Origin: Escherichia coli
GTDB taxonomy: Bacteria; Pseudomonadota; Gammaproteobacteria; Enterobacterales; Enterobacteriaceae
NCBI RefSeq assembly: GCF_048403405.1
Contig: NZ_CP183129.1
DNA: 64,000 nt
Direction: 5' to 3' (one strand)
In this document: positions 47,160 to 48,941 of the stretch, one piece after another
Numbering within the stretch: position 1 is the stretch's first letter
Layout of the letters: the number at the start of each line of letters is the position of its first letter
Notes under the pieces: generated by a model
Told to the model about the DNA's origin: nothing
Seen by the model: the letters and a program-made list of their open reading frames with translations, nothing else
Databases searched by the model: none
Made by a program: the position numbers and the translations under genes

Positions 47160-48941
47160 TCAGGCGCTCAATGATTCCTCTTCACGCACGCTGGCTGCCA
47201 GCTCTTCGCCCGCAAGTTGCAGTTGATACATCTGCCAGTAGCGTCCCTGGGCCGCTAGCAGTTGCTGGTGAGTGCCCTGCTCCACGGCTTGCCCACGATG
47301 AAGCACCAGAATAGTGTCGGCATCAACAATAGTTGATAAGCGGTGAGCAATCACCACCAGCGTGGTATGCTCACGCACCGCCGCCAGAGCATGTTGAATC
47401 GCCTGTTCAGTACCGGAGTCAATGCTGGCGGTTGCCTCATCAAGGATCAGGATTTGCGGCGTCTCCACCAGCACGCGTGCCAGTGCCAGTAGTTGCTTTT
47501 GCCCGACGGAGAGATTATTCCCCTGCTCTCCCAGCGGCGTATAAATACCATCACTCATGCTGCGCGCCAGCTCCGCCAGTTGCACGGTTTCCAGCGCCTG
47601 CCAGACGCGTTCTTCGGAGATATCACGTCCCAGCGTCACGTTGGCGAGAAAGGTATCCGCCAGCACTACCGGATCTTGCTGCACCATCGCCACGCCCTGA
47701 CGCAGCGCGCTGTGACTTAACGAACTTAATGGACGACCATCAAGGCGAATCTCACCTTCCGTTAGCGGGTAATAGCCCATCAATAAACTGGCGAGGGTGC
47801 TTTTGCCACTGCCGGTATGCCCGACCAGTGCCACAAAGTTACGCGAAGGCACAGAGAGATTAATGTTCTTTAGCACCAGATTGTCATCGCGATAAGCAAA
47901 TGACACGTTATCGACTTCGATGGTGCCGCTCTGTAACGGGCGATCATCATTGCCATATTGCTGGCGCGGTCCGTCCATCAGTTCAAACACACGCTCACCA
48001 GCAACTACAGCCTGTTGCAGCATCGCCTGCTGCGTGGTCAGTTCGATTAATGGTTCGTTAAGTCGCCCAAGATAGCTGATAAATGCATACAACACGCCCA
48101 CTTCAATGGTGCCGCTGGCGGAGAAGCCAAACAGCATCAACAACCCACAAAGAATGAGCGATGAAAACAGACTCAGCAGCGGACGCAGCAGAAAACCGTC
48201 GAGGCGCAGGGTTTGCATCCTCGCCATATAGTGTGAACGACTGGCCTCACCCATACGTTCGCCAAATCGCGACTGCTGACGGAACTGCTGGATAACGCTC
48301 ATGCCATTGATGATTTCGTTAAAGCCGTCGTTGATATCTGCCAGATAAGCGCGTACACGGCGGACGATCGGCGTGCTGTAACGCTGATATATCACCATTA
48401 CCACCAGCACCACCGGGAAAATCATTATCGCCACCAGCGCCATTCGCCAGTCGAGGCTGAACATCGCCACCAGCATCGCGCCCACCAGTGCGGCGCTACG
48501 CAGGACAGTTGCCACTACGGTAACGTAGAGGTCGCGGATCACTTCAGTGTCATTAGTGACGCGGGAAATCACCTGCCCGACGGGTTGGGTATCAAACTCG
48601 CTTAATGGCTGGCGTAACGCAGCATCCATCACGTCGGTACGCAACTGTTGCACTACGCCAACTGCCGCCCGATTAAACAGCAGCGACTGCGCGTAATGTA
48701 GCCCGGCGGCAAACAGTTGCAGCCCAACATACGCCGCAGCCAGCCCTGCAACCACTTTCAACGGCAGGTTATTTTTCGCTACCATATTGTCGATAAAATA
48801 GCTGATAAGCAGCGGCCCACTGACTTCTGCCGCTGCCGCAACCCACATCATCAGGACCGCAATCCCCAGCGGTTTACGCCACGGCGAACCGTACGCTAAC
48901 AGACGCTTGAGAGTCGGCCACAGTTGGCTAAAACTACGCAT
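47160..48941 (-). CDS. mdlB: ABC exporter half-transporter MdlB (593 aa)
   Basis: Track ORF trimmed to [15 protein letters not shown]; Walker [10 protein letters not shown]. Confidence 0.9.

Follow-up and report, generated by a model that had tools for sequence, protein, structure and literature searches.

The window, a 64,000-nt stretch of Escherichia coli DNA, corresponds to the tig to siiEA region of the E. coli chromosome in reverse orientation. Over positions 12706–64000, it differs from strain TUM14771, whose RefSeq annotation was mapped onto it, at 8 positions. At approximately 12705, in the ybaK/ybaP gap, the collinearity with TUM14771 breaks at an insertion or deletion, and the TUM14771-mapped coordinates are therefore unreliable below approximately 12700, including those of the frameshifted siiEA adhesin pseudogene at the low end.

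The region considered here contains the two ABC half-transporter genes mdlA and mdlB, the regulator gene upstream of them, and a hairpin downstream, all on the minus strand. The features of the junction and the sequence motifs of the two proteins are collected in Table 1.

Table 1. Features at and around the mdlA–mdlB junction (window coordinates).
Feature	Position	Strand	Description and basis
decR (cyuR/ybaO) regulator gene	50736..51194	(-)	Upstream, 29 nt from mdlA; annotation mapped onto the window
mdlA CDS	48934..50706	(-)	GTG start at 50706, TAG stop at 48936-48934, 590 aa; SmdA-type ABC half-transporter; ORF translation, NF008055, RefSeq
MdlA signature LSGGQ	49276..49290	(-)	Canonical; would complete a consensus ATP site with the MdlB Walker motifs
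MdlA Asp498	49213..49215	(-)	Occupies the catalytic Glu position that follows Walker B (ILILDD); marks a degenerate ATP site
Shine-Dalgarno sequence of mdlB, GAGGAGG	48948..48954	(-)	6 nt before the ATG (-13 to -7), within the mdlA codons for Glu-Glu-Ala; direct reading
Overlap ATGCGTAG, 8 nt	48934..48941	(-)	mdlB start codon (48941-48939) plus mdlA stop codon (48936-48934); direct reading
mdlB CDS	47160..48941	(-)	ATG start at 48941-48939, 593 aa; SmdB-type ABC half-transporter; translation, NF008056, RefSeq
MdlB signature LSVGQ	47499..47513	(-)	Non-canonical; would complete a degenerate site with the MdlA Walker motifs
MdlB Glu502	47436..47438	(-)	Canonical catalytic glutamate (ILILDE); motif reading
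Terminator-like hairpin	47098..47125	(-)	Between mdlB and glnK, which are 180 nt apart; consensus scan only

On the minus strand, the end of the mdlA frame reads ATT CGC GAG GAG GCC GTT GAT GCG TAG, and the mdlB frame opens with ATG CGT AGT TTT AGC, in the +1 frame relative to mdlA. The 8-nt overlap that had been proposed from a sequence-only reading is borne out by this direct reading and by RefSeq, and the gene identities proposed in the same reading agree with the NCBIfam equivalog matches and with the RefSeq annotation. The same overlap is given by the PGAP/RefSeq coordinates in the near-identical genome of strain TUM14771 (mdlA 2595-4367, mdlB 4360-6141 in locus L001) and by RefSeq for K-12 MG1655 (mdlA 468871-470643, mdlB 470636-472417), and the junction region is present in 5,377 of 5,426 complete E. 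coli genomes. The 8-nt overlap and the mdlB start at 48941 are real.

The K-12 genes b0448 and b0449 are the same genes, with the same 8-nt overlap, start codons, and stop codons; over mdlAB, the nucleotide identity between K-12 and this strain is 97.2%, and 7 residues of MdlA and 1 of MdlB differ. Huber et al. (2023) include this pair in their supplementary table for E. coli as NGHB#430, with a spacing of -8 and CMPLX yes, for b0448 mdlA and b0449 mdlB (PMC10666635). With the RefSeq annotation and this table, the overlap and its reading are already known. The overlap is not unusual either, since -8 is the third commonest overlap class in E. coli, behind -4 and -1 (PMC10666635), and 707 of 2,987 co-directional E. 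coli pairs are spaced between -8 and +6 (PMC10666635; PMC12548453). The overlap in itself has little import beyond a confirmed annotation, and it is an ordinary bacterial way to make two partner proteins together.

The position of the mdlB start, which the sequence-only reading had placed at 48941, was supported by several lines of evidence: the profile alignment, the conserved N-terminus, stops upstream, codon periodicity, and the Shine-Dalgarno sequence. In the alignment to the SmdB equivalog NF008056, profile positions 1-583 correspond to MdlB residues 1-583. The column entropies for codon positions 1, 2, and 3 in mdlB codons 4-40 were 0.46, 0.24, and 1.20, respectively, among the best 80 Enterobacteriaceae loci. 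This pattern, which sets in right after the ATG, is the signature of coding in the mdlB frame from there onward. In addition, 18 of the best 80 loci carry a stop codon in the mdlB frame shortly before the homologous ATG (0, 1, or 5 codons away), which means that the start cannot be further upstream.

If mdlB began instead at a downstream Met, the overlap would be gone. The next ATG, GTG, or TTG in frame is codon 30/31, and some Yersinia rohdei MdlB database entries (P0075) open at the equivalent Met. However, residues 7-25, which precede Met30/31, are strongly conserved across genera, and the N-terminal motif upstream of this Met is common to Klebsiella, Salmonella, Enterobacter, Providencia, Sodalis, and the endosymbiont Profftia. 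The family profile begins at MdlB residue 1, the third-position variation starts at the ATG at 48941, and the conserved Shine-Dalgarno sequence lies 6 nt before that ATG and not before codon 30. A start at codon 30/31 is thus extremely improbable.

Other start candidates were also rejected. The upstream in-frame GTG/ATG codons at 49055, 49046, and 49043 lie inside mdlA, have no counterpart in the profile, and are separated from mdlB by stop codons in other species. The TTG at 48944-48942, which would extend the overlap to 11 nt, is an extra, non-conserved in-frame candidate of this strain; it is an unlikely start, because K-12 carries TCG at this place and the Shine-Dalgarno sequence would be only 3 nt away.

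Two variations in the annotated or actual start were seen elsewhere in the family. The Yersinia rohdei entry P0075 opens at the downstream Met (MAVLMLWVAAAA...) without approximately 29 conserved N-terminal residues, and P0079 is similarly short; these short entries look like start-codon misannotations. In Enterobacter asburiae TN152 (L049), GTG replaces ATG at the mdlB start.

The conservation of the junction was evaluated with the best 80 loci from a genome contig scan, all of which belong to the Enterobacteriaceae and are at the species level, with at least 86% identity; diversity beyond this family is represented by four single loci, from Providencia, Sodalis, Rouxiella, and Profftia. In all of the best 80 loci, the mdlA stop lies at +6 to +8 of the mdlB start, and the pattern [A/G]TG-NNT-A[A/G] is kept, with both TAG and TAA in use. 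The variants of the overlap sequence among these loci were ATGCGTAG (41 loci), ATGCGTAA (32), ATGGATAA (3), ATGCATAA (2), and GTGCGTAA (1). Where the mdlA frame could be scored, mdlA ends as an 8-nt overlap in 78 of 79 of these loci. The exception, in Citrobacter amalonaticus (L010), keeps the junction sequence and has an mdlA frame interrupted further upstream, reflecting either an assembly error or a pseudogene.

The Shine-Dalgarno sequence is retained in the same set. Positions -11, -10, and -9 (G, G, and A) are invariant, positions -12, -8, and -7 are conserved at 90-97%, and GGAGG is present in 73 of the best 80 loci. The flanking positions -20 to -14 and -5 to -1 are near information-free in these loci, and an alignment of 20 junctions exhibited gains and losses of whole codons in the MdlA tail just upstream of the Shine-Dalgarno sequence. 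The combination of variable flanks and a variable MdlA tail with a fixed Shine-Dalgarno sequence, start, and stop indicates that the conservation acts at the nucleotide level.

Beyond a conserved motif, the MdlA C-terminal tail (48942-48985, minus strand) varies among the Enterobacteriaceae in both sequence and length, and the two Glu codons that spell the Shine-Dalgarno sequence and the final [D/N/H][A/G]-stop are fixed. The last residues of MdlA appear to be set by the start signals of mdlB rather than by MdlA function.

Outside the Enterobacteriaceae, mdlA and mdlB remain closely spaced but at other distances: -4 (ATGA) in Providencia, +2 in Rouxiella, and +16 in Profftia. In Sodalis praecaptivus (L083, 2501-2517), the overlap is 17 nt; the mdlA stop TAG is replaced by CAG, and mdlA is three codons longer. 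In the assembly of this species, mdlA and mdlB are each split among several called ORFs, which points to frameshifts or pseudogenes.

A conserved overlap in the +1 frame might also serve a programmed frameshift near the end of mdlA, which would yield a single full transporter resembling P-glycoprotein. In this strain, the mdlB frame contains no stop over the 38 codons that precede the ATG, and an SD-like sequence lies upstream of the mdlA stop, an arrangement loosely reminiscent of prfB. The fusion was rejected on four grounds: in six of the best 80 loci, a stop 0-1 codons ahead of the ATG interrupts the mdlB frame, a slippery codon is absent at the junction, the Shine-Dalgarno sequence lies 8 nt from the last mdlA sense codon, unlike the short spacing of prfB, and the conserved element at the junction is a start codon. 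We therefore give practically no credence to a frameshift product.

The genes around the junction are conserved in order as well. The mdlA and mdlB genes are adjacent and co-directional, A then B, within decR-mdlA-mdlB-glnK-amtB; the same order and neighbors (an AsnC-type regulator, A, B, P-II, and Amt) are found in Providencia, and part of this context is found in Sodalis and Rouxiella. Expression of cyuR together with mdlAB has been reported (PMC11408624). On the coding strand, no sigma-70-like promoter was found within mdlA, a scan that is weak evidence either way, and no terminator was found between mdlA and mdlB by the consensus scan. The lack of an internal promoter signal and the hairpin after mdlB are consistent with a decR-mdlA-mdlB transcription unit, the end of which is likely marked by the hairpin.

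The junction has the features of the termination-reinitiation class of gene pairs: the two genes are co-directional on one presumed transcript with a spacing of -8, within the range of -8 to +10 nt, and the Shine-Dalgarno sequence of the downstream gene (GAGGAGG, -13 to -7) lies inside the upstream CDS. Like the short co-directional overlaps at -4, -1, and -8 described previously (Huber et al., 2019, 2023; Brown and Wade, 2025), mdlAB has the arrangement NTG-NN-stop, at -8, with the mdlB Shine-Dalgarno sequence in the upstream gene, and MdlA and MdlB are annotated as subunits of one complex. The -8 spacing is an enriched class that is counted as predictive of termination-reinitiation (PMC10666635). 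For tandem COG1132 half-transporter pairs from 1,695 genomes, however, the supplementary data give a distance of -3.4, and pairs of this kind may usually be spaced differently from -8.

According to this mechanism, a ribosome terminating at the mdlA TAG would sit over the mdlB start site and, held by the Shine-Dalgarno sequence, could re-initiate a few bases upstream at the mdlB ATG, and MdlB would thereby be produced beside MdlA and in step with it. Some independent initiation at the same Shine-Dalgarno sequence would be likely too. In our reading, reinitiation and independent initiation both happen at mdlB. Coupling between mdlA and mdlB is probably at least partial, its degree being a matter of interpretation from the junction features.

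The earlier statement that the overlap implies translational coupling is nevertheless too strong, and coupling is only plausible, because some of the tested overlapping pairs are uncoupled or partly coupled, the -8 spacing is less efficient, and the Shine-Dalgarno sequence is strong without an occluding structure. Of the five overlapping E. coli pairs tested, four were coupled; bioBF was uncoupled and menDH merely approximately 60% coupled (PMC6728339). Reinitiation has been reported to be less efficient at a spacing of -8 than at -4 or -1 (PMC10666635). Where coupling in E. coli is strict, the block to de novo initiation has been attributed to local folding of the RNA at the start site (PMC6728339). 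At the mdlA–mdlB junction, no stable structure was found in a 121-nt fold (-38.6 kcal/mol versus a shuffle mean of -40.5, z = +0.45), and no conserved structure was found at the SD/AUG in the RNAalifold analysis of 20 orthologous junctions (-1.7 kcal/mol, with four pairs far off and no covariation). With a strong Shine-Dalgarno sequence and neither a stable nor a conserved occluding structure, independent initiation at mdlB is possible.

These observations bear on an alternative in which the overlap reflects genome compaction only, with mdlB translated mainly through independent binding of ribosomes to its Shine-Dalgarno sequence and with an output that does not depend on mdlA. The strength and optimal spacing of that sequence (GAGGAGG, 6 nt), its unmasked state, the uncoupled or partly coupled pairs, and the lower efficiency at -8 would all suit this alternative. 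On the other hand, the exact -8 geometry is retained in 80 of the best 80 loci although the adjoining MdlA tail gains and loses codons, and most of the tested overlapping pairs were coupled. Furthermore, a ribosome terminating at the TAG would physically cover the Shine-Dalgarno sequence and the AUG, so the two translation events could hardly be fully independent. Compaction without dependence on mdlA is thus doubtful, and at least partial coupling is preferred.

A further possibility is that the -8 spacing is selected for itself, rather than being a passive relic, and that, together with the strong Shine-Dalgarno sequence, it could tune the ratio of MdlB to MdlA off a strict 1:1. The spacing is invariant in the best 80 loci beside an MdlA tail that is free to change. 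A spacing tuned in this manner would leave a pool of MdlA working without MdlB, as the deletion phenotypes reported in 2024 hint (PMC11408624). We hold this to be very improbable.

The family membership of the two proteins is clear. MdlA scored 1263 bits on the NCBIfam SmdA equivalog NF008055 (cutoff 845) and 232.6 bits on NF008056, and MdlB scored 1184 bits on the SmdB equivalog NF008056 (cutoff 746) and 230.8 bits on NF008055. Each protein is therefore above its own cutoff and well below the cutoff of the partner model, as expected for an SmdA/SmdB pair.

The ATP-site motifs of the two proteins are asymmetric, and this asymmetry is conserved. The LDD motif of MdlA was present in 72 of 74 loci scored (the remaining two gave no motif match) as well as in Providencia and Profftia, and the MdlA signature LSGGQ was conserved in 73 loci. 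For MdlB, the signature LSVGQ was present in 70 of 74 loci scored (the remaining four gave no motif match), in Providencia (as LSVGQRQ), and in Profftia; the LDE motif was conserved in 70 loci. The catalytic Glu is thus replaced in exactly one subunit and the non-canonical signature lies in the partner subunit, with both defects in one composite site, as in the heterodimeric type IV exporters of the BmrCD / TM287-288 / LmrCD class. Since the MdlA Asp and the MdlB LSVGQ would share one composite site in an A/B dimer, the other site would be fully canonical.

In such an exporter, the working ATP site would be formed by the MdlB Walker A and B motifs with Glu502 and the MdlA LSGGQ, whereas the degenerate site would be formed by the MdlA Walker A and B motifs with Asp498 and the MdlB LSVGQ.

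Searches of the PDB with MdlA and MdlB returned no structure of MdlAB itself; the best solved relatives were BmrC for MdlA (1e-148) and BmrD for MdlB (4e-118), which together form one heterodimer. BmrCD (YheI/YheH) of Bacillus subtilis (PDB 7m33, 8t1p) exhibits the same Asp/Glu asymmetry, with D500 in BmrC and E592 in BmrD (PMC10632425): the A-type Asp is BmrC D500 and MdlA D498, and the B-type Glu is BmrD E592 and MdlB E502. BmrCD is nevertheless a distant, cross-phylum relative, and BmrD has a longer N-terminus, the match to MdlB beginning near BmrD residue 148.

The two reports on BmrCD differ in the placement of the Asp. A 2014 eLife paper (PMC4046567) puts it in BmrD, whereas the 2023 structure paper (PMC10632425) has the Asp in BmrC (D500) and the Glu in BmrD (E592). 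The newer assignment agrees with MdlA, the Asp-bearing protein, being closest to BmrC.

A nearer relative is SmdAB of Serratia marcescens. According to later papers that cite Matsuo et al. (2008, J Bacteriol 190:648), SmdAB is a multidrug pump that works as a heterodimer, with 79% identity between SmdA and MdlA. The scores of MdlA and MdlB exceed the NCBIfam equivalog cutoffs for SmdA and SmdB. Direct functional data on the E. coli proteins are few and in part conflicting (PMC11408624; PMC4222104).

The contradiction leads to an alternative in which MdlA and MdlB form separate homodimeric pumps, or in which MdlA alone is active, and in which the overlap is silent about a complex. Deletion of mdlA gave a phenotype with cefazolin and vancomycin and deletion of mdlB gave none with cefazolin, from which the authors suggested independence (PMC11408624), and overexpression of mdlB alone gave isopentenol tolerance (PMC4222104). 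However, complementation with mdlA failed in the 2024 deletion study (PMC11408624), and the chromosomal mdlA was presumably still present in the 2014 isopentenol study, judging from its design (PMC4222104). Moreover, pairing of MdlA with itself would give two Asp-type sites and pairing of MdlB with itself two LSVGQ sites, and only the heterodimer would have a fully canonical site. The complementary motif pattern is conserved as far as the endosymbiont Profftia, and the best solved relatives are, as described above, two chains of one heterodimer. Separate homodimers, or MdlA alone, are accordingly improbable.

The heterodimer that the sequence-only reading had drawn from the overlap thus stands on other grounds, namely the motif asymmetry, the match to BmrC and BmrD, and the heterodimer reported for SmdAB. 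The step from the overlap to the heterodimer does not stand: in E. coli, only 30.4% of the pairs at -8 to +10 nt encode subunits of a complex, compared with 6.8% of those at more than 20 nt (PMC10666635), so a heterodimer does not follow from the overlap. MdlA and MdlB very probably form a heterodimer in E. coli, their physical association being deduced from the grounds given. The conserved complementary degeneracy, with Asp498 in MdlA and LSVGQ in MdlB, argues for an obligate heterodimer as far as the motifs can tell, a point that bears on the independent action recently suggested for the two proteins (PMC11408624).

As a whole, we interpret the locus as the mdlA–mdlB junction of one ABC exporter of the SmdAB/BmrCD type, with mdlB served by the Shine-Dalgarno sequence inside mdlA and probably translated at least partly in step with it, an interpretation to which we assign a probability of roughly 80%.

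Two other pairs of genes in the window share nucleotides, according to the mapped RefSeq annotation: ybaB and recR are co-directional and share 1 nt at 25343, and hemH and aes are convergent and overlap by 4 nt at 20835-20838. In the same annotation, mdlA and mdlB are the sole pair within the window with a spacing of -8.
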